The notes under the pieces: model-generated
Told to the model about the DNA's origin: nothing
What the model saw: the letters and a program-made list of their open reading frames with translations, nothing else
Database searches by the model: none
Made by a program: the position numbers and the translations under genes
Shown here: positions 4,391 through 17,314 of the stretch, piece after piece
Layout of the letters: the number at the start of each line of letters is the position of its first letter
Numbering within the stretch: the first letter of the stretch is position 1
DNA from: Escherichia phage vB_EcoM_NBG2
Sequence record: NC_054925.1
Length of the DNA: 64,000 bases
Strand: one strand, 5' to 3'

Positions 4391-4931
4391 ATAAAAAATC
4401 CAAACTAGGAGAATCGTCTACAACACTTTTCTTTTCAGCCCCCGGTGTTCTATAGGTTGATTCTTCGTAATGCGTCATTTTATCGTAGATGTCTTGAATA
4501 AAAGTTTCATCTACTAACGCAACCATATCGTCGTCACGGCTGTCATAGACATTGTGAACGAAGTAACTGTATTTCTTTGCAACTTCCTTACGTTCTTTTT
4601 TAATACGTTGGACGAATGCATTAAAACAAGCTTGAGTTATATATGCATGCGGGTTTTTATATTTCGTTTCATCAAAATTGTGAAGCCCCTTAATAGAAGC
4701 TTCTATACCATCTGCAATCATTTCTTGTTTCCAAGACTGGGTGTATCCTGAAAAGTTGAAACGTTTAGATAAGCCTTCTGCAATAAGCATAATGGCTAAT
4801 CCGATAGTATCATTCTGACGAACTACTTTATTTGGGTCTTTATTATTTGCTAATTCTGTTTTCCAATCAATAATAGCTTGTAAAAGCTCTTTATTGTTTA
4901 CGTAATTATATTTAGGCTTAGTTTCTGACAT
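4374..4931 (-). CDS. 55: late-transcription sigma factor gp55
   Basis: Start moved to second Met ([17 protein letters not shown]) with AAGAGGTGA SD; 185 aa as in T4 gp55. Confidence 0.9.
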
Positions 4932-6838: not shown

Positions 6839-7147
6839 TTAGTCTTCTATGATATCTCTATCATATCCAAGTGAAATGAGAGTTTCTTTGAAGTGTTTAA
6901 TGTTCTTTTGTCTAGAATCATTAATGAAAATGACTGGATAACGAATGTTAAGAGATGTGAATCCAGCGCGTTTAGCAAGAGATACAATCAGTGGACGATC
7001 ATACTCAATCTTACCATTATTTGTAAGAACTTTATAGAAAGTAAAAGGAGCATTGAGCTCCTTTAGAAGTTTTGTAACTGATTGACATCCAGGACAACGA
7101 CCTACTTCATCTGGAATTCCATAGACTTCAATCTTGTTTTGTTTCAC
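6839..7147 (-). CDS. nrdH: glutaredoxin-like redoxin (NrdH-type)
   Basis: 102 aa; CPGC redox motif near N-terminus; sits just upstream of nrdG/nrdD. Confidence 0.7.
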   Translation of the reverse strand: MKQNKIEVYGIPDEVGRCPGCQSVTKLLKELNAPFTFYKVLTNNGKIEYDRPLIVSLAKRAGFTSLNIRYPVIFINDSRQKNIKHFKETLISLGYDRDIIED

Positions 7148-7149
7148 AA

Positions 7150-7362
7150 CTATTCCTTACTAAGAGCAGCATTCAGCTTGTTAGTAATTTTATCCAGACG
7201 CTCATTGAATTCGCTAGAAGATAAGCCTTTTTCTGGAGAAATCAAACTAATCACGAAAAATATAGCAATAAAAGGAATAAGGAAAATAGCTCCAACTGCC
7301 ATAAACAGAAAGAATGTTACAGTTGTAAGAAAATCAGCTAAACCTTTACGAAATTTATACAT
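7150..7362 (-). CDS. small membrane protein (70 aa)
   Basis: One long hydrophobic helix (FFLFMAVGAIFLIPFIAIFFVISLI). Confidence 0.45.
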   Translation of the reverse strand: MYKFRKGLADFLTTVTFFLFMAVGAIFLIPFIAIFFVISLISPEKGLSSSEFNERLDKITNKLNAALSKE

Positions 7363-7477
7363 ATTTTACCCTTAATTGATTAACCAAGCATTGATAAGCA
7401 CTAAACTATACTGCGAATAAAATTCTGGACCAAAATGAAAAATCATATCATTTATAGTATCCATAATGTAATTCAAT

Positions 7478-7948
7478 TTAATCATGTGTCCACACCCCAT
7501 CGGTATTTGACCAAAGTCGCTGATTATCTGATCCTCGCCACAGCTTTTTGGTCGGAAGATTTTTCTCATACTTCCCATCAATAATAACATCAACATATTT
7601 AAGCATTTCTAGTTGTTTAATATCTTCAAACTTATATCCTGTCCACAACCAAATGCTTTTATTCGGATAAAGATTTTTTACTGTTTGAACAATGCAATGA
7701 ACAACATCTCGGTTATCAGGATAAAGAGGGTCTCCTCCAGTTATAGTTAATCCTTCTATATAATCATTATTCAAACATTCAATTAATTGTTCTAGCGTTT
7801 CACCAGTGAATGGAACGCCATTTCTAGCATTCCATGTTGATTTATTATAACACCCTTCACATTTATGCAAACAACCTGTAACGAAAAGAACGACCCTGCA
7901 TCCAGGGCCATTCACAAAATCGCAGGGATAAAATCTATCGTAATTCAT
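7478..7948 (-). CDS. nrdG: anaerobic ribonucleotide reductase activating protein (radical SAM)
   Basis: 156 aa; Cys cluster GCLHKCEGCYN; 4-nt overlap with nrdD. Confidence 0.9.
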   Translation of the reverse strand: MNYDRFYPCDFVNGPGCRVVLFVTGCLHKCEGCYNKSTWNARNGVPFTGETLEQLIECLNNDYIEGLTITGGDPLYPDNRDVVHCIVQTVKNLYPNKSIWLWTGYKFEDIKQLEMLKYVDVIIDGKYEKNLPTKKLWRGSDNQRLWSNTDGVWTHD

Positions 7949-9762
7949 TGGTGTTTAACCCTATGCATGATTTCTTTATTTTTTCCAAGATTAAATCCGC
8001 GTTCATTCGGATTTCCCAAATAACCACAAGTTCTTCTTATGGTGTTCATCTTTTTAGGATCAGTTTCTCCACAAATAGAACAAACAAATCCGTTTTCAGT
8101 AGGAGTCATTTCATGGGTACTTCCGCATGTAAAACATTTATCTACTGGCATATTAACACCAAAATAATCTAAATGTTGTGCAGCATAATCCCATACAGCC
8201 TCAAGACCTTTTAGGTTATTTTTCATATCAGGAAGTTCAACATAAGAAATGTGACCACCTGTCGCAATGAAATGATACGGTGCTTCGCGAGAAATCTTTT
8301 CAAACGGAGTAATATTTTCTTCTACTGAAACGTGGAAACTGTTAGTGTACCAGCCTTTATCGGTAACATCTTTTACACTTCCATATTTTTCGGTATCAAG
8401 TTTACAGAAGCGATAGCACAGATTTTCAGCAGGAGTAGAATACAAACTAAAAGCAAAACCAGTTCTTTCAGTCCACTGCTTAAGATGAGTATTCATTTTA
8501 GTTAAAATTTCCTGTCCAATATCACGACCGACAAGAATATTCAATTCGTGAATACCAATGTATCCTAGGGATACTGAACTTCTACCGTTTTTAAATAACT
8601 CAATTATATCGTCATCAGGTTTAAGACGGACCCCGAATGCACCTTCTTGGTAAAGAATAGGAGCAACAGTAGCTTTAACTCCTTTTAAGGAACTAATTCT
8701 ACACAGCAAAGCTTCAAAACATAAATCCATTCGTTCATTGAACAATTCGGCAAATTTCTGTTCATTGAACTGTGTTCCAATATAAGAATCTAATGCAATA
8801 CGAGGAAGATTCAGTGTTACAACGCCAAGATTATTACGTCCATCAAGAATTTCACTACCAGTCGAATCTTTCCATACACCCAAGAAACTACGGCAACCCA
8901 TTGGAGAAACAGGAATAGATGAACCTGTGATAGCTTTATTGTTCTTAGCCGAAATGATGTCAGGATACATTCTTTTGCTTGCACACTCTAGAGCAAGCTG
9001 CTTAATATCATAGTTCGGGTCGTCTTTATAAAGATTAACACCTTCTTCAACGAACATAACAAGCTTAGGGAAAATAGGAGTTATCCCATCACGACCGAGA
9101 CCTTTAATACGATTTTTCAGAATTGCTTTCTGAATCATTCGTTCAGTCCAGTCAGTTCCCGTGCCAAATGTAATTGTTACAAAAGGCGTTTGTCCGTTTG
9201 AACTAAAGAGAGTATTTACTTCATATTCATAAGCTTGGAATGCATCGTATACATCTTTTTCTGTTTTAGATTGAGCATAATTTAACGCATCAGCGATTTG
9301 CCATTTTTCTGCATCCTCAATATGTTTTGCATAGGTGCGTTTAACATAAGGAGAAAGTACTTTATCTACATTAGCAAAAGTCGTTCCGCCATATTGATGG
9401 GAAGCAACTTGCGCAGTAATTTGTGCCATAATTGCAGTAGCAACGCCAATTGATTTAGGAGTTTCAATCTGCGCATTACCAAGCTTAAATCCGTTCTCAA
9501 GCATTCCTTTTAAATCTACTAAACAGCAATTAGTAAATGGAAGAGCAGGGGAATAATCAATATCATGAAAATGAATAATTCCGCTTTCATGCGCTTTCAT
9601 AATAAAAGACGGGACCATATTTTTGGCAATGTGTTTAGACACAATACCAGCCATAAGGTCCCGTTGAGTTGGAAAAACACGAGAATCTTTATTAGCATTC
9701 TCGTTTAAAAGGTCTTTATTAGTTTTATGAATCAATCCTTCAATTTCTTTTTCAATTGTCAT
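7945..9762 (-). CDS. nrdD: anaerobic ribonucleoside-triphosphate reductase (class III), uninterrupted
   Basis: 605 aa continuous ORF; C-terminal glycyl-radical motif RRTCGYLG and Cys-rich zinc site. Confidence 0.93.
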   Translation of the reverse strand: MTIEKEIEGLIHKTNKDLLNENANKDSRVFPTQRDLMAGIVSKHIAKNMVPSFIMKAHESGIIHFHDIDYSPALPFTNCCLVDLKGMLENGFKLGNAQIETPKSIGVATAIMAQITAQVASHQYGGTTFANVDKVLSPYVKRTYAKHIEDAEKWQIADALNYAQSKTEKDVYDAFQAYEYEVNTLFSSNGQTPFVTITFGTGTDWTERMIQKAILKNRIKGLGRDGITPIFPKLVMFVEEGVNLYKDDPNYDIKQLALECASKRMYPDIISAKNNKAITGSSIPVSPMGCRSFLGVWKDSTGSEILDGRNNLGVVTLNLPRIALDSYIGTQFNEQKFAELFNERMDLCFEALLCRISSLKGVKATVAPILYQEGAFGVRLKPDDDIIELFKNGRSSVSLGYIGIHELNILVGRDIGQEILTKMNTHLKQWTERTGFAFSLYSTPAENLCYRFCKLDTEKYGSVKDVTDKGWYTNSFHVSVEENITPFEKISREAPYHFIATGGHISYVELPDMKNNLKGLEAVWDYAAQHLDYFGVNMPVDKCFTCGSTHEMTPTENGFVCSICGETDPKKMNTIRRTCGYLGNPNERGFNLGKNKEIMHRVKHQ

Positions 9763-11808: not shown

Positions 11809-12099
11809 TTATTCCTTAATTCCTAGTACTTGTTTAAAAATCTCGTCATAATCAAGACTTTGGCCCGTTTGTTCTTTATGTTTGTATATAATATCACTTA
11901 CTTCTGATAGCATATTTTTATATGAACGAGTTAAAGCAGATTTAAGAACGCTATATCTATCAGGAAATTTACCATGTTCATTATAATAAGCTATTGCTAA
12001 TTCACGGACTGCTTTTTCAGCAATCTCCATATATTCTTTACGCTTGGTCATTTTCTTCTCTCTCAAATCGGTGTTTGCAATGACGACATTTATATTCAA
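11809..12099 (-). CDS. hypothetical protein (96 aa)
   Basis: ORF track. Confidence 0.45.
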
Positions 12100-12355
12100 G
12101 CTCTGGTTTACGCCAGTTAATCAATTGTACCTGTTCAGTACCACATTTTGGACAGTTCGGAACATTCTTAGAAGCTCTTTCGCGGCGTTCAACCATAACC
12201 ATAATGGCATCCCAAGCAGGAGGTTTAAAGTCTAGATCGTCACAGCCATGAATCTTTCCACGCATTTCCAGATCGTCTTCTTCGCCAGCCATAATAATTT
12301 TAATTAGACTAGAATTACTTGAAGCTGCAATATCTTCTAATAAGCGCTTTTTCAT
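12038..12355 (-). CDS. hypothetical zinc-ribbon protein (105 aa)
   Basis: CPKCG..(x17)..CRHCKH four-Cys motif; overlaps neighbours. Confidence 0.45.
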
Positions 12356-13281
12356 TTCAATACCTCAATAGCATTACGTAAACCATTTGCTTTTGCATTA
12401 AGAGCTTTTAACAATTTAGTGTGTTCGGCAATCTGGGCTTCAACTTCAATCAAACGAGCATTGAGATATTCGCGTTCTTCGCTCAGGTTATCAACCTTTT
12501 CTACTTTAGGTTCTTTTACAACTGGCTTATATGTATTAGGGTTCTTCAGTTTAATTAGAATGCGTGAACTGTACAGCATTGAACCATTATCTTCGGTTTC
12601 GTCATACATTTCCACTACGTCCATCATCTCCACCATCGTGCAGAGTTTATAAGACAACGAACGAATAATTTTGTTGTGCTTATTAATTTCTCTAGCTGTC
12701 ATGGTGCCGAGATTACGTGAGTAATAATAAGGAACCTGGATATTAATTAATACTGATGAACCACCTGGCTTGTGTGTTACTTCATCAGCAATAACCCAAT
12801 CCTTAACATGAACTGTATTTGTACGGTCATCGCCCGCGGTAAATAGTTTACGAGCATGCTTAAAAAGCATATTCACTTGGTCATTGAATTGACAAGCGAA
12901 TTTATCAGCAAATTTAGTTTCGGGAATGGTAGATAACCAATCAGCCAAATGGGTCTTTTTAACATCGTTAACAATAGTAAATTCAACCAAATCGGTTATA
13001 GATGTCTCAGATTTAATGAAGCTCGGCTTCATAAAGTTTTTAATGTTATCACTAGCTACAGTAGAAGATAACAGACGAGAACGTTTAAACCATTGAAGCA
13101 AATTGCCTAACGAATGAGAATAAGCGTTTTGAGTATCTTTACAGATATGATTTTCCTGGCCAACATATTGAAGGAAATCACGAAGAATATTATTGATTAC
13201 TGCTCTGTGTCCGATCTGATAATTACGGTGTTTAGTAATAAGACTGTCAAAATAATCAATATAATGTTTACGAGTTTTCAT
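12352..13281 (-). CDS. hypothetical protein with C-terminal coiled coil (309 aa), paralog family member 1
   Basis: ORF track; C-terminal heptad region EEREYLNARLIEVEAQIAEHTKLLKALNAKANGL. Confidence 0.6.
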   Translation of the reverse strand: MKTRKHYIDYFDSLITKHRNYQIGHRAVINNILRDFLQYVGQENHICKDTQNAYSHSLGNLLQWFKRSRLLSSTVASDNIKNFMKPSFIKSETSITDLVEFTIVNDVKKTHLADWLSTIPETKFADKFACQFNDQVNMLFKHARKLFTAGDDRTNTVHVKDWVIADEVTHKPGGSSVLINIQVPYYYSRNLGTMTAREINKHNKIIRSLSYKLCTMVEMMDVVEMYDETEDNGSMLYSSRILIKLKNPNTYKPVVKEPKVEKVDNLSEEREYLNARLIEVEAQIAEHTKLLKALNAKANGLRNAIEVLK

Positions 13282-13335
13282 GTTCTTCTCACTTGGTTAA
13301 TGGTTTATACTCCGAGCCATCCTTGGCTTTAAATT

Positions 13336-14337
13336 TTACTTAATTAACTGTAAAGCTTGTTCAAGACGATCCAGGCGATTAACAGATTCTTCCCAAATCC
13401 TTTTAGCCTGCTCATATTCTTTCTGTGCTTTATTAGAAATTTCTAGAACTTCTTTATAAGCTTTTTCTAATGCAATAACTTCTGGACGAATTTCTATCGG
13501 TTCAGGTGAATCGTCAAGACATTCCATTAGTTCCTCAAGGGTAGTTTCTTCTTTAGGAGTATTCACAATTTCATCACATTTTTGCTGGTAAATTTCTTTA
13601 TCAGTCGGTGAGTACGCACACTTTACTTCACGAAGACTAACTACAATTTTATATCCTTCCCAGCCGCATATATTCTTAAAAGGATATGTATGAATATTTT
13701 CTACTGTTTCCATACAAAGTAATGCGGTCTCTAATTGACGAGTTATAGTACTAGCAATTGAGAAAAATTTATTAATGTTCTTTTGGTTAGCTTCTGGTGT
13801 AAAAAATCTGTAATTAATAAAAATAGCTACTTTGTTTTTATCAAGCTCATATTCTTCTGCTATAATCATATCATCAGCTAAGGGATGAATTGTACGATAA
13901 TCACCATAACATAATTTAGAAGCTGATTTTAGAATCTGTCCTTTGAAAAGTCTGAAATTACTAATCCAACGACGAGTAAAAATATTCTCGGTGTCTTCTT
14001 TGACATTAAGATGATAAGAATTAACATCACCGAACCAATTATATCCTACTACATCTTTGGTTCGTTTAATTTCTTTCCCAAAATTACCAAGAATATCCCG
14101 ATTAACCAAATATGAAAGAAGACGAGACTCTTTAAAGGCTTTCTTGATAACATCTTTATCTACACGGCTAGAAATTTTACGAATTTCATGAATAAATTTA
14201 ACAGAAGAAACAATACTTGCGTCAACACTATTGAGCCATTGATTGATAATGGAAATAACGCTATTTTGGCCAAACAACGGTATAGCTTTATCATCAATAA
14301 CGCTATTGAATGATTTGATATATTCGTTACGAGTCAT
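13336..14337 (-). CDS. hypothetical protein with C-terminal coiled coil (333 aa, start revised), paralog family member 2
   Basis: Start at MTRNEY with GGAG SD, downstream of an early promoter; C-terminal coiled coil. Confidence 0.6.
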   Translation of the reverse strand: MTRNEYIKSFNSVIDDKAIPLFGQNSVISIINQWLNSVDASIVSSVKFIHEIRKISSRVDKDVIKKAFKESRLLSYLVNRDILGNFGKEIKRTKDVVGYNWFGDVNSYHLNVKEDTENIFTRRWISNFRLFKGQILKSASKLCYGDYRTIHPLADDMIIAEEYELDKNKVAIFINYRFFTPEANQKNINKFFSIASTITRQLETALLCMETVENIHTYPFKNICGWEGYKIVVSLREVKCAYSPTDKEIYQQKCDEIVNTPKEETTLEELMECLDDSPEPIEIRPEVIALEKAYKEVLEISNKAQKEYEQAKRIWEESVNRLDRLEQALQLIK

Positions 14338-14359
14338 ATTAATCTCCTCAGTAGAAAGT

Positions 14360-14400
14360 AAGAACATTATACCACATCCTTGTGGTAAAGTAAACTAGTT
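14360..14400 (-). promoter_or_regulatory. early promoter
   Basis: Minus strand GTTTAC (14395..14390) and TGGTATAAT (14374..14366). Confidence 0.55.
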
Positions 14401-15423
14401 CAGTGCATTTAGTGCATTGTTCAGTTTAGAACGTTGCTTCGTGAGATTTTTGACTTTTTCTTGAGCTTTTTCTAACATCTTTTCAGCTTCTAACACTTCA
14501 TTAGTTGCTTTAACGAGTTCATCATCTACTGCCTTGATAGACTTCTCAATCGCATCAGCATGCCATTTTTCAACAGGTTTAAGACTCGGATTTTCAACAG
14601 GAAGAAAATTCACTTTATTGAATTTCCATGCATCCTTATTACCTGAACTATACATCCAAAATTTAGGATCGTTTGATGAGTAATTGGATAAATTTAAATT
14701 TAAGTTATCTTGCACTTCCTGCTTTTTCTCTTGCGTGACTTCATCCTTTCTCAAAAAATCGTATTTAAATGAAACGATCATATCAAGTTCATATGTTGTT
14801 GTGTCTAATTTAAATCGTTCGAAATGCTTTGAAATCTTAGACTGAACAGCGGCAACAACATCCATATACTTAAATGCTTCTGTCAACTGCGATTTAAGGC
14901 ATTCACAAATTGAAAGAGAATTTTTTGTATTAGGTTTAAAGCTAATTCGTGCAGTTCTATTATTTTCTTTTAATGGTCTTACTTCCATCTGAAGAGTATA
15001 ACCATCAAATTTCAGATTCTTTAAGTTAATATCAGAACCTTTTAATCGACTCGCAGTTGATAAAATTTGCTTTAATTGTCTACGGAACAGAGCAATAAAT
15101 CTCCATTCAATACGATAATGATTTGGATTGAAAAATCCAGATGATAAATCAACCTTACTCTGACCAACGCCTTGAACAAATAGAGGATTTTTATAATCAA
15201 TAGTTTTACAGAAATCGGTGAGCTGCTCACGAGCAGTCATTTGCGTAATATACCCTGCTTTACTAAAATTACGCACCCATTCACTGCTATTCTTATACTT
15301 AAAGTGATGAATAGTACGATTAACTTTATCAAGGTCTAAATTATTTTCACACAAAAATGTCATAACATCACGAGTATCGCTGGCATTACGAACCATATCT
15401 TCAATTTGAGAACGAGTTTTCAT
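14395..15423 (-). CDS. hypothetical protein with C-terminal coiled coil (342 aa), paralog family member 3
   Basis: ORF track; C-terminal coiled coil ...EAEKMLEKAQEKVKNLTKQRSKLNNALNALN. Confidence 0.6.
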   Translation of the reverse strand: MKTRSQIEDMVRNASDTRDVMTFLCENNLDLDKVNRTIHHFKYKNSSEWVRNFSKAGYITQMTAREQLTDFCKTIDYKNPLFVQGVGQSKVDLSSGFFNPNHYRIEWRFIALFRRQLKQILSTASRLKGSDINLKNLKFDGYTLQMEVRPLKENNRTARISFKPNTKNSLSICECLKSQLTEAFKYMDVVAAVQSKISKHFERFKLDTTTYELDMIVSFKYDFLRKDEVTQEKKQEVQDNLNLNLSNYSSNDPKFWMYSSGNKDAWKFNKVNFLPVENPSLKPVEKWHADAIEKSIKAVDDELVKATNEVLEAEKMLEKAQEKVKNLTKQRSKLNNALNALN

Positions 15424-15431
15424 AGTGTTCC

Positions 15432-16337
15432 TTAAGATTTAAGTAAATCAACAATTTTAATTAACTTTTCACGCTCAGATTTAGCTTTACTACTCAATCC
15501 AGATAGTCTGAAAATTTCATCGTCATACTGTTGAATAGAAATATTCAGCTCTTCAATCTGTTTATTAAAATAATCAATTTGTTCAGAGTGTTTTTCGTTA
15601 CTACGAACTGGTACAGGTTTCGTAGGCAATTTAGTTGAACTGGATTCATCCGGGCGATAAATCAAAATGCAATTTGAACCAATCGGGCATTTAGCACCAG
15701 ACGTATATTCTAATGTTCCAGCTTCTTTTAAAACTTCAAAAGCTAAACAGAGATGATGCCCCATATTAGCATAATCTGTAGAGTAAGCTCTGATGTAATA
15801 ATCATCTCCACGAATACTAAATTTAAAGCATTTAAGGTCTTCTGTATTATTGGTCTTAAAAATCATTTGTTTATCTAGACCTTTAGCTAATCGAGCGCCT
15901 AATGCTAATAATCGTCTTTGATTTTCCCACAAATCCGCAATCATTTGATCGAATGATAATTTTGGCATTAGTCGACCATAAAGGTCATATCCTTTATTAT
16001 AATTACGAAGGATTTCACTCGCATTAATGCGAGACAACGCTCCAATTTTATTAAGGGCTTTCATAATACGATTAGATAAACTCATTCCAGACCCATTTGT
16101 TCGCTGTAGATGTTTTTCTAATCCAAATCCAATATCAACTTTAAACTTATCTAAAATTTCGGCATGAACATCTCTATCAATAACATTCAAATCCAAAGTT
16201 GGGTTAAATCTATGAAAAAATTTATCTGGCTCTCCACGACGAAATACAGTCCATTCATTCATCATTTTTTTATTAACTAAAGATTTAATTACTGCATTGA
16301 CATTATTAATTACTACTGACATATTTTCCTCACTCAA
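15432..16337 (-). CDS. hypothetical protein with C-terminal coiled coil (301 aa), paralog family member 4
   Basis: ORF track; C-terminal coiled coil QIEELNISIQQYDDEIFRL... Confidence 0.6.
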   Translation of the reverse strand: MSEENMSVVINNVNAVIKSLVNKKMMNEWTVFRRGEPDKFFHRFNPTLDLNVIDRDVHAEILDKFKVDIGFGLEKHLQRTNGSGMSLSNRIMKALNKIGALSRINASEILRNYNKGYDLYGRLMPKLSFDQMIADLWENQRRLLALGARLAKGLDKQMIFKTNNTEDLKCFKFSIRGDDYYIRAYSTDYANMGHHLCLAFEVLKEAGTLEYTSGAKCPIGSNCILIYRPDESSSTKLPTKPVPVRSNEKHSEQIDYFNKQIEELNISIQQYDDEIFRLSGLSSKAKSEREKLIKIVDLLKS

Positions 16338-16731
16338 TTTTACTAATTACGCGAAATAAGATTGAACAGACTACATAAGCACCGCACACAGATTGAACTA
16401 ATACCATTCCAAAGAACCAAATAATATTATCAAACCATGTCTGTTTTACGTCGAAAGGACGTAAACTTACAGTAATATTATCGCCTTTTTCTATTGAAGA
16501 ATACATCTCTGGTGAAATATATTCACTAAATCTATAACCGTCATTTAGTTCATATACAGCAATAAACGATAAACTAGACCCCTTTCCTTGAGTTCCTGTA
16601 AGGGTATTAACTACAGTAACATCATAATCTTTATAATGCATATAATCATTAATAGCATAATAACCATATGCAATTACTATACATAAACAACATATCAATA
16701 AATTCAATCTTTTAATTATCAACTGTTTCAT
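16330..16731 (-). CDS. membrane protein (133 aa, two predicted TM helices)
   Basis: Hydrophobic segments at N- and C-termini. Confidence 0.5.
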   Translation of the reverse strand: MKQLIIKRLNLLICCLCIVIAYGYYAINDYMHYKDYDVTVVNTLTGTQGKGSSLSFIAVYELNDGYRFSEYISPEMYSSIEKGDNITVSLRPFDVKQTWFDNIIWFFGMVLVQSVCGAYVVCSILFRVISKIE

Positions 16732-16786
16732 AATAATCTCAATTAAAAGGGCTTAGAACCATTATACCATCCTTGGTATAAAGCAG

Positions 16787-17314
16787 TTATGCGAGTACCG
16801 TCTTTAACCGTTCTTCAAACTTCCGAAGAGTATTTTGGCGTTCAGCTCTTTGCTTTTTGTAAGTTTCAATACGCTCTGAAATGAGAGTGTATCGTTCATT
16901 TACTGATTCTTTCATAAAATCAGGAATTTCACGAGAAGCTTTAATCTCATCAAATTTATCAATAACAGCTTGCTCTTCAGCAATTAAGTTATCATACATT
17001 AAAATATCTTTCTTGATGAACTCAATATCTTCTTGAGTTACACGAGATAATTTAGATACTTTATCCTTTTTGTACTGTTCGTTAGTATCACGAGACCAGT
17101 GCAATGTACGATTTTTATTCGTATTCTTGTAAATTTCTACAATACCAATCTCATCGATAATAACGATCCAATTCCAACGGGATTTGTAAATTTGTCCTCC
17201 ATCAACAGTGATTTCACCTCCGATTGAGATGTCATTAAAGAACTTACTTTGTGCTTCAGATTTAAATTTACCATCGTTGTAATTTACCAAGTTGAAAATA
17301 TCTTTAGCGTTCAT
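16787..17314 (-). CDS. hypothetical protein (175 aa)
   Basis: ORF track; early promoter and GGAGGA SD upstream. Confidence 0.55.
   Translation of the reverse strand: MNAKDIFNLVNYNDGKFKSEAQSKFFNDISIGGEITVDGGQIYKSRWNWIVIIDEIGIVEIYKNTNKNRTLHWSRDTNEQYKKDKVSKLSRVTQEDIEFIKKDILMYDNLIAEEQAVIDKFDEIKASREIPDFMKESVNERYTLISERIETYKKQRAERQNTLRKFEERLKTVLA

Follow-up and report, generated by a model that had tools for sequence, protein, structure and literature searches.

A 64,000-nucleotide stretch of Escherichia phage vB_EcoM_NBG2 (sequence record NC_054925.1), called the window here, holds four consecutive minus-strand genes at positions 12352 to 16337. Their products had been predicted from the sequence alone to be tandem paralogs of about 300 to 340 amino acids (aa), each ending in a coiled coil. 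The locus raises two questions: do these proteins share a common origin, and what do they do for the phage? We found that the genes, known in phage T4 as nrdC.3, nrdC.4, nrdC.5, and nrdC.6, encode homologous proteins that belong to one anciently duplicated superfamily, which occurs only in T4-like phages (Straboviridae). One member, NrdC.5, counters a host defense protein, and we discuss below whether the others have comparable roles.

Homology of the four proteins

A megablast search with positions 12000 to 17000 of the window matched 736 phage records, mostly at 90 to 96% identity, and identified the locus as T4-like (Tequatrovirus). We took the gene names from the matching T4 record and abbreviate the paralogs as A (nrdC.3), B (nrdC.4), C (nrdC.5), and D (nrdC.6). 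All four lie on the minus strand, as originally predicted, with the starts of two genes revised. The A-type gene nrdC.3, a member of the A/B subfamily, spans positions 12352 to 13281 (309 aa; phrog_1435, E = 4e-116) and is followed by nrdC.4 at 13336 to 14337 (333 aa; phrog_1435, E = 1e-165), nrdC.5 at 14395 to 15423 (342 aa; Pfam DUF7235 [PF23882], E = 1.6e-124), and nrdC.6 at 15432 to 16322 (296 aa; phrog_2257, E = 1e-151). The open reading frame (ORF) of nrdC.4 extends to 14367 (13336 to 14367, 343 aa). This longer reading is unlikely because an early sigma-70 promoter (14366 to 14394, minus strand), the "early promoter 50.0" of T4 (TTTACT-17-TATAAT with TG), is conserved here in sequence and overlaps the upstream ATG; we therefore take the ATG at 14337 as the true start. 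The nrdC.6 ORF, when begun at a TTG codon, covers 15432 to 16337 (301 aa), and the 296-aa version starts from the ATG at 16322, as in the T4 annotation. Identity to the T4 counterparts is 60% for NrdC.3, 94% for NrdC.4, 94% for NrdC.5, and 98% for NrdC.6.

Pfam and PHROGs place the four proteins in three families: NrdC.3 and NrdC.4 in phrog_1435/PF26897, NrdC.5 in DUF7235 (PF23882)/phrog_2351, and NrdC.6 in phrog_2257/PF26899. In precomputed tables, PF26897 is assigned to NrdC.4 homologs and PF26899 to every NrdC.6 homolog. NrdC.5 matches PF23882 over its full length with 415.7 bits (gathering threshold, 30 bits). Membership in DUF7235 is limited to this protein, as NrdC.3, NrdC.4, and NrdC.6 had no PF23882 match at an E value of ≤1 in the Pfam search. 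Conversely, NrdC.5 and NrdC.6 had no match to phrog_1435/PF26897. The separate families, together with a pairwise BLASTP comparison in which only NrdC.3 and NrdC.4 were significantly similar (27% identity over 204 residues), could mean that these two alone are true paralogs and that NrdC.5 and NrdC.6 are unrelated proteins with a convergent or compositional, coiled-coil-like tail. Direct profile-profile (HH) values of only 0.03 to 0.08 for NrdC.4-NrdC.6 and NrdC.5-NrdC.6 fit the same idea.

Since BLASTP was significant for a single pair, profiles were required. We made family profiles from database homologs and related loci and used the reversed profile as a control. The NrdC.3 and NrdC.4 profiles matched each other with an E value of 3.6e-12, and the combined NrdC.3+NrdC.4 profile matched that of NrdC.5 on the globular core alone (E = 2.3e-4, compared with 0.24 for the reversed control), the alignment spanning residues 68 to 228 of NrdC.4 and 53 to 206 of NrdC.5. 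When the tails were removed, the NrdC.4 and NrdC.5 profiles still aligned (P = 0.001, versus approximately 0.4 for the reversed control), so that the similarity reaches beyond the compositional bias of a coiled coil. Stronger links came from a bridging profile, K, representing a single-copy gene of Klebsiella Jiaodavirus phages (phiA85_57, Metamorpho_214, and Mineola_080). It matched NrdC.3+NrdC.4 with an E value of 6.7e-8 and NrdC.5 with an E value of 5.4e-8 over 225 columns; these ties, near 5e-8, cover 140 to 225 columns. A second bridge, gp194 of Enterobacter phage CIP9, matched profile K (2.6e-5, 208 columns), NrdC.3+NrdC.4 (2.5e-4), and NrdC.6 (4.4e-6).

AlphaFold2 models connect NrdC.4 (pLDDT, 83.6; pTM, 0.69) with NrdC.6 (pLDDT, 78; pTM, 0.65), the fold shown in the two predictions being shared. 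The order of secondary-structure elements is identical: N-terminal helices, a helix pair (motif I), and a short beta region are followed by a helix/helix/short-helix unit (motif II; residues 119 to 148 of NrdC.4 and 124 to 151 of NrdC.6), a beta hairpin, and a long helix (motif III), and then by a second hairpin, a low-confidence linker, and a long terminal helix. Searching predicted viral structures with Foldseek (E ≤ 1e-3) returned approximately 20 matches for the NrdC.4 model and 9 for the NrdC.6 model, all of them T4-like phage proteins of 155 to 378 aa. NrdC.6 of phage JS10 was found by both models (E = 6e-5 from NrdC.4 and 4e-21 from NrdC.6), and five further targets, from phages IME523, PM2, fHe-Yen9-01, Acj9, and Mineola, were common to the two lists at an E value of ≤3e-4. 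The Mineola target (326 aa) would be a hub that links A/B, C, and D, because its length and phage are those of Mineola_080 in the bridging profile.

In a cross-family alignment, the four proteins of the window share four collinear features (motifs I to III and the KP linker with the tail). Motif I is exemplified by AFKESRLLSYLVNRDILGNFGK in NrdC.4, NFSKAGYITQMTAREQLTDFCK in NrdC.5, and ALNKIGALSRINASEILRNYNK in NrdC.6; motif II follows the pattern F...F..N....IL....+L..G.D+, and motif III is an amphipathic helix with the pattern L..A...M[DE].V. The cores that carry motifs I to III, all on the minus strand, lie at 12607 to 13092 in nrdC.3 (WFKRSRLL..., FACQFNDQVNMLFKHARKLFTAGDDR, and LCTMVEMMDVV; cross-family alignment), 13693 to 14157 in nrdC.4 (motif I as above, WISNFRLFKGQILKSASKLCYGDYR, and LETALLCMETVE; alignment and model), 14839 to 15279 in nrdC.5 (motif I as above, FIALFRRQLKQILSTASRLKGSD, and LTEAFKYMDVV; profiles and alignment), and 15720 to 16082 in nrdC.6 (motif I as above, MIADLWENQRRLLALGARLAKGLDK, and HLCLAFEVLKEA; alignment and model). 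Each protein is built from an N-terminal helical region that varies, an alpha/beta core that is conserved and carries the three motifs, a variable linker ending in "KP," and a C-terminal helix. Among orthologs, the tail and motifs I and II are conserved best, and the N terminus, hairpins, and linker vary most. The central Cys-containing hydrophobic patch of the original prediction corresponds to a real conserved helix, motif III; in no subfamily is the Cys conserved, and it is incidental. Taken with the tail-less NrdC.4-NrdC.5 alignment, profile K, the matching models, and the collinear motifs, the restriction of true paralogy to nrdC.3 and nrdC.4 is very unlikely, and the predicted shared architecture is borne out.

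All four window proteins end in an amphipathic helix of 45 to 55 residues that closes with L-x-x-[AI]-[LIV]-x-[LV]-[LI]-K, and the helix is also present in members from Klebsiella, Enterobacter, and Acinetobacter phages. It is encoded on the minus strand at 12355 to 12486 in nrdC.3; at 13339 to 13485 in nrdC.4, where it ends in ...RLEQALQLIK (residues 285 to 332 of the AlphaFold2 model, 48 residues); at 14398 to 14559 in nrdC.5, where it ends in ...KLNNALNALN and is preceded by the linker motif KPVEKWH; and at 15435 to 15596 in nrdC.6, where KPVPVRSNEKH precedes a helix-break-helix (residues 243 to 272 and 278 to 295 of the model) ending in ...KLIKIVDLLKS. We tested the last 42 residues for a single heptad register against shuffles of the same residues. 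Such a register was significant for NrdC.3 (P = 0.001), NrdC.5 (P = 0.003), and NrdC.6 (P = 0.04) but not for NrdC.4 (P = 0.5), whereas a heptad-rich coiled coil had been proposed for every copy. The strongest 28-residue heptad window of NrdC.4 covers residues 300 to 327 of the 343-aa ORF (290 to 317 of the 333-aa protein), and its tail is one heptad shorter in the alignment. Judging from these sequence patterns, an oligomerizing coiled coil is a candidate role for the tail helix.

A Pfam scan of the A/B family (all 44 members) and a sequence search of the PDB gave only noise (designed helical repeats and DUF3905 below the threshold). An exhaustive hidden Markov model search of 1.84 billion proteins with the NrdC.5 profile yielded 13 representatives and no cross-family matches, which makes this subfamily extremely narrow. 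A search among viral contigs for sequences related to the Klebsiella and Acinetobacter members found only near-identical loci. Konradin gp116 is probably a family member, although its profile links are weak (0.002 to 0.02). Genes 228 and 229 of Aeromonas phage Aes012, Klebsiella phiA85_56, CIP9 gp197, and Konradin gp119 and gp122 were rejected as members for lack of similarity.

Copy number and rates of evolution

We found no DNA similarity between the copies, internal repeats, recent duplication, or gene conversion within the window stretch; the duplications are therefore old. Nearly every matching phage record gives two places for the query of positions 12000 to 17000, and no repeat inside the window accounts for that. 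For each of the NrdC.6, NrdC.5, and NrdC.3/4 subfamilies, orthologs exist in several phage genera, and the number of copies differs between lineages. Close T4 relatives carry D-C-B-A (four copies, as here and in T4). Three copies are found in Dhaka/Mosig-like coliphages (D-C-B) and in the divergent Tequatrovirus JK45 (D-C-A). Phages of Klebsiella (Jiaodavirus), of Enterobacter (Kanagawavirus), and probably of Acinetobacter (Lazarusvirus) have a single copy, which occupies the same position immediately upstream of nrdC.2/nrdC. In Aeromonas phage Aes012, no copy was found near nrdC.10. The prediction of one multigene family, formed through tandem duplications within the variable nrdC-rI region, is supported.

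The family had also been called diversifying. We computed omega (the ratio of nonsynonymous to synonymous substitution rates) against four related phages. For nrdC.4 and nrdC.5, omega was 0.19 to 0.24 over the full length (0.33 for the split nrdC.4 of locus L005); it ranged from 0.07 to 0.34 for nrdC.3 and from 0.07 to 0.15 for nrdC.6. The neighbors nrdC, nrdC.8, nrdC.9, nrdC.10, and nrdC.11 had values of 0 to 0.10, which supports faster evolution of the family members than of the neighboring genes. As omega stays below 1 gene-wide, "diversifying" applies in the sense of fast evolution, allele replacement, and copy number change.

Allele replacement is seen at nrdC.3, which has two deeply diverged alleles among close T4 relatives (synonymous divergence [dS] of approximately 0.95, compared to 0.1 to 0.3 in the flanking genes). 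The window allele recurs at approximately 85% nucleotide identity in JK45-like phages, and the adjoining genes are unmatched at that level, so replacement by recombination is the likely explanation. The nrdC.2 gene covaries with the nrdC.3 alleles (64 to 93% identity; window positions 12038 to 13281).

In phage vB_EcoM_G8, nrdC.4 is split into two ORFs of 200 and 158 aa (L005, positions 6950 to 8003), and short NrdC.4 fragments are annotated in T2 and G8 (BFVD A0A482N302 and A0A2Z5WKJ2 [phage T2]). The split gene and the fragments suggest that nrdC.4 has been pseudogenized in some phages.

A candidate role in countering host immunity

The original prediction listed the function as unknown, which is not wholly the case, as T4 nrdC.5 counteracts Dsr1: a plasmid carrying nrdC.5 rescued a T4 deletion mutant that was unable to grow on Dsr1 cells (Srikant et al., eLife 2022, PMC9391042). 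Dsr1 is a SIR2-domain (sirtuin) defense protein (PMC9391042). Its sensor, common to Avs7, responds to the major capsid protein of the phage; the tail terminator and the tail tube are among the core proteins that sister receptors detect (PMC13581612). The window nrdC.5 is the ortholog of this T4 gene, with 94% identity. NrdC.3, NrdC.4, and NrdC.6 share its motifs and tail and, according to profiles and models, would share its fold; they differ in lying outside PF23882 and in having at best 15 to 27% identity to NrdC.5. The four genes are located behind or near an early promoter, in an accessory block that is transcribed early and is bounded by gene 49 and nrdC.11, and nrdC.3 to nrdC.6 are dispensable on laboratory E. 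coli K-12 (published). Two flanking genes of the block likewise counter host immunity and are nonessential: gp49.2 inhibits OLD (PMC13096335), and NrdC.1 inhibits Septu (bioRxiv 10.1101/2025.11.20.689424). Both differ from the four paralogs in being small, and they have no homology to them.

We consider it probable, with some reservation, that the family consists of early, dispensable, oligomeric, nonenzymatic binders through which host immune sensors are blocked; we infer this role for NrdC.3, NrdC.4, and NrdC.6. The NrdC.3 to NrdC.6 proteins would be made early and would oligomerize through the tail helix. Their fast-evolving head surfaces would then bind and block host immune sensors before the triggering late virion proteins appear. 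NrdC.5 may occupy the Dsr1 sensor, the one that is triggered by the major capsid protein, and NrdC.3, NrdC.4, and NrdC.6 may target other sensors or other Dsr1/Avs variants. Lineages would keep one, three, or four copies and swap alleles because the paralogs would target different sensors.

Several points weigh against this reading. NrdC.5 is the sole copy with an experimental function, and the experiment does not distinguish direct binding from an indirect effect. No anti-defense phenotype is reported for nrdC.3, nrdC.4, or nrdC.6, and the HIDEN-SEQ supplementary rows for these genes show no significant effect, with few defense systems covered. The register break in the NrdC.4 tail leaves that protein without one continuous heptad register. 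On the side of homology, the direct profile links of NrdC.6 are weak (E = 0.002 to 0.08), yet always collinear; this protein is tied in through structure and one bridging protein, CIP9 gp194, and the place of NrdC.5 in the fold depends on profile-profile links. Finally, an omega below 1 is no proof of an arms race or positive selection.

The alternative that survives best is a primary role outside immunity, such as early host takeover or a regulatory function exerted by binding to host proteins or to nucleic acids, with the anti-Dsr1 effect being indirect or specific to NrdC.5. The function of the one characterized copy comes from a single complementation experiment, all four genes are dispensable, and no significant effect was seen in their HIDEN-SEQ rows. 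The constant neighbor NrdC.2, a zinc-ribbon protein, could point to an activity related to nucleic acids. However, the family itself has no DNA-binding or enzymatic domain signal, and its traits resemble those of counter-defense genes: proven anti-defense neighbors, narrow taxonomy, fast evolution, allele replacement, and copy change or loss. We therefore regard a nonimmune primary role as unlikely, if worth keeping in mind.

A second alternative keeps the immune setting and changes the mechanism: the core would copy a tail-terminator or tail-completion fold, and the proteins would act as early decoys that saturate Avs- or Dsr-type receptors. Avs families that sense the tail terminator, tail tube, and capsid exist, and Dsr1 shares such a sensor (PMC13581612). 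In BFVD, the NrdC.4 model has weak matches to small "tail completion"-like proteins (ranks 21 to 46), and structural scores against tail terminator and completion proteins (lambda gpU, T5 p142, SPP1 gp17-like, and DUF3168) are modest, with no sequence similarity. Generic alpha+beta folds, such as those of ribosomal protein S6 and nitroreductases, turn up among the structural matches too, and the search of solved structures covered the NrdC.4 model. Moreover, the sequences match no tail protein family, and the known target of NrdC.5 senses the capsid protein, not the tail terminator. Unlike a tail terminator, which is a late and essential virion component encoded in the tail module, the NrdC proteins come from an early block with an early promoter and are dispensable; they are approximately 300 aa long, with additional helices in the N-terminal region and a long helix at the C terminus, and are not known as virion components. 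In its fullest form, in which the fold is borrowed from the virion and each paralog is an early "sensor plug," a dimeric decoy for a different shape-recognizing receptor, the idea is equally improbable, and we give decoys of either form little credence. If it were true, the receptors would be, for example, capsid sensors of the Dsr1/Avs7 type or Avs proteins that sense the tail terminator or tail tube, and the one- to four-copy arrays and allele swaps would record the receptors met by each phage lineage.

The possibility that the proteins are NAD+-restoring or -protecting enzymes, like NARP1/2, is hardly credible: Dsr1 depletes NAD+, and it is known to be countered by pathways that reconstitute NAD+, but we found no sequence match to an enzyme family or solved structure and no enzyme-like fold signal, and the residues conserved across subfamilies in the cross-family alignment are mainly hydrophobic or structural, with no catalytic-type residues or constellation among them. 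For lack of a conserved catalytic pattern, an enzymatic role of the family was rejected.

For the reading as early binders of immune sensors, the nearest functional analogy is DSAD1 of phage SPbeta, which neutralizes a SIR2-type NADase (DSR2) that has a virion-protein sensor and, in published structures, binds the sensor region of DSR2. By analogy, NrdC.5 could act on Dsr1 in a similar manner. The two differ in host, phage family, and target (DSR2 and the tail tube for DSAD1, Dsr1 and the capsid protein for NrdC.5). Nothing in sequence or structure was seen to relate them, although no search aimed at this was made.

The literature that we searched contains no description of nrdC.3 to nrdC.6 as one family. 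The union of three database families, the link to a proven anti-Dsr1 factor, and the pattern of one, three, or four copies appear to be new. The genes themselves are long-annotated T4 ORFs, and fast-evolving anti-defense families in phage accessory regions are already known, so that this is not a new kind of system. NrdC.5 is the only phage factor known to counter Dsr1, and the superfamily offers a scaffold for the question of how Dsr1 is blocked, with a conserved core, a conserved tail, and variable surfaces. NrdC.3, NrdC.4, and NrdC.6, as well as the single-copy relatives in Klebsiella, Enterobacter, and Acinetobacter phages, are candidate inhibitors of other protein-sensing immune systems. 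This connection is relevant to host range prediction and to the engineering of T4-like therapeutic phages.

Flanking genes and rearranged copies

The gene nrdC.2 (12038 to 12355, minus strand) encodes a 105-aa zinc-ribbon protein, as judged from Zn-ribbon matches, and overlaps the nrdC.3 stop by 4 bp. In every enterobacterial T4-like genus examined, an nrdC.2 homolog comes immediately after the final family gene, and the stop and start usually overlap by 4 bp. Synteny and homology were seen in the loci of JK45, Dhaka/Mosig-like phages, Mineola, phiA85, and CIP9, with homologs at 4478 to 4735 in locus L026, 13310 to 13597 in L028, 5723 to 6028 in L029, and 7990 to 8292 in L006. No homolog was found beside the Acinetobacter phage copy. 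By association alone, nrdC.2 may be a translationally coupled partner of the family.

On the other side, nrdC.7 (16330 to 16731) encodes a 133-aa predicted membrane protein directly upstream of nrdC.6, and at its stop it overlaps the nrdC.6 ORF that begins at the TTG. Close T4 relatives have this gene; Dhaka/Mosig-like loci and JK45 lack it, and there nrdC.8 abuts the D-type gene.

Individual family members elsewhere have been rearranged. In protein P0056, encoded on a 167-kb contig, a natural deletion fuses NrdC.5 (residues approximately 147 to 277) to NrdC.3 (approximately 136 to 309), with the loss of nrdC.4. The junction lies at a KVN/QVN microhomology. As the junction positions are nonequivalent in the two proteins, the fusion arose by illegitimate rather than homologous recombination.

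Three of the matches to the NrdC.5 profile were dismissed as artifacts, one of them a repeat (P0236) and two of them chimeras (P0230 and P0235). P0230 is a 173-aa ORF (positions 120 to 641 of L030, an 803-bp ENA contig) that joins an unrelated N-terminal half to an exact NrdC.5 tail; it is likely an assembly chimera because it is known from one very short metagenomic contig.

The NrdC.6 protein of Shigella phage Sf25 (P0058, 378 aa) contains an internal tandem duplication of approximately 82 residues, which takes in motif III and the second hairpin and reaches into the beginning of the tail. In the D-type protein of JK45, gp094 (L029, positions 8056 to 9051), an acidic linker insertion (…EYDINQEDALKDLIDELNQD…) resembles the NrdC.4 linker. 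A weak HH match between this linker and residues 263 to 299 of NrdC.4 (E = 0.004) hints at an exchange of linker segments between subfamilies.

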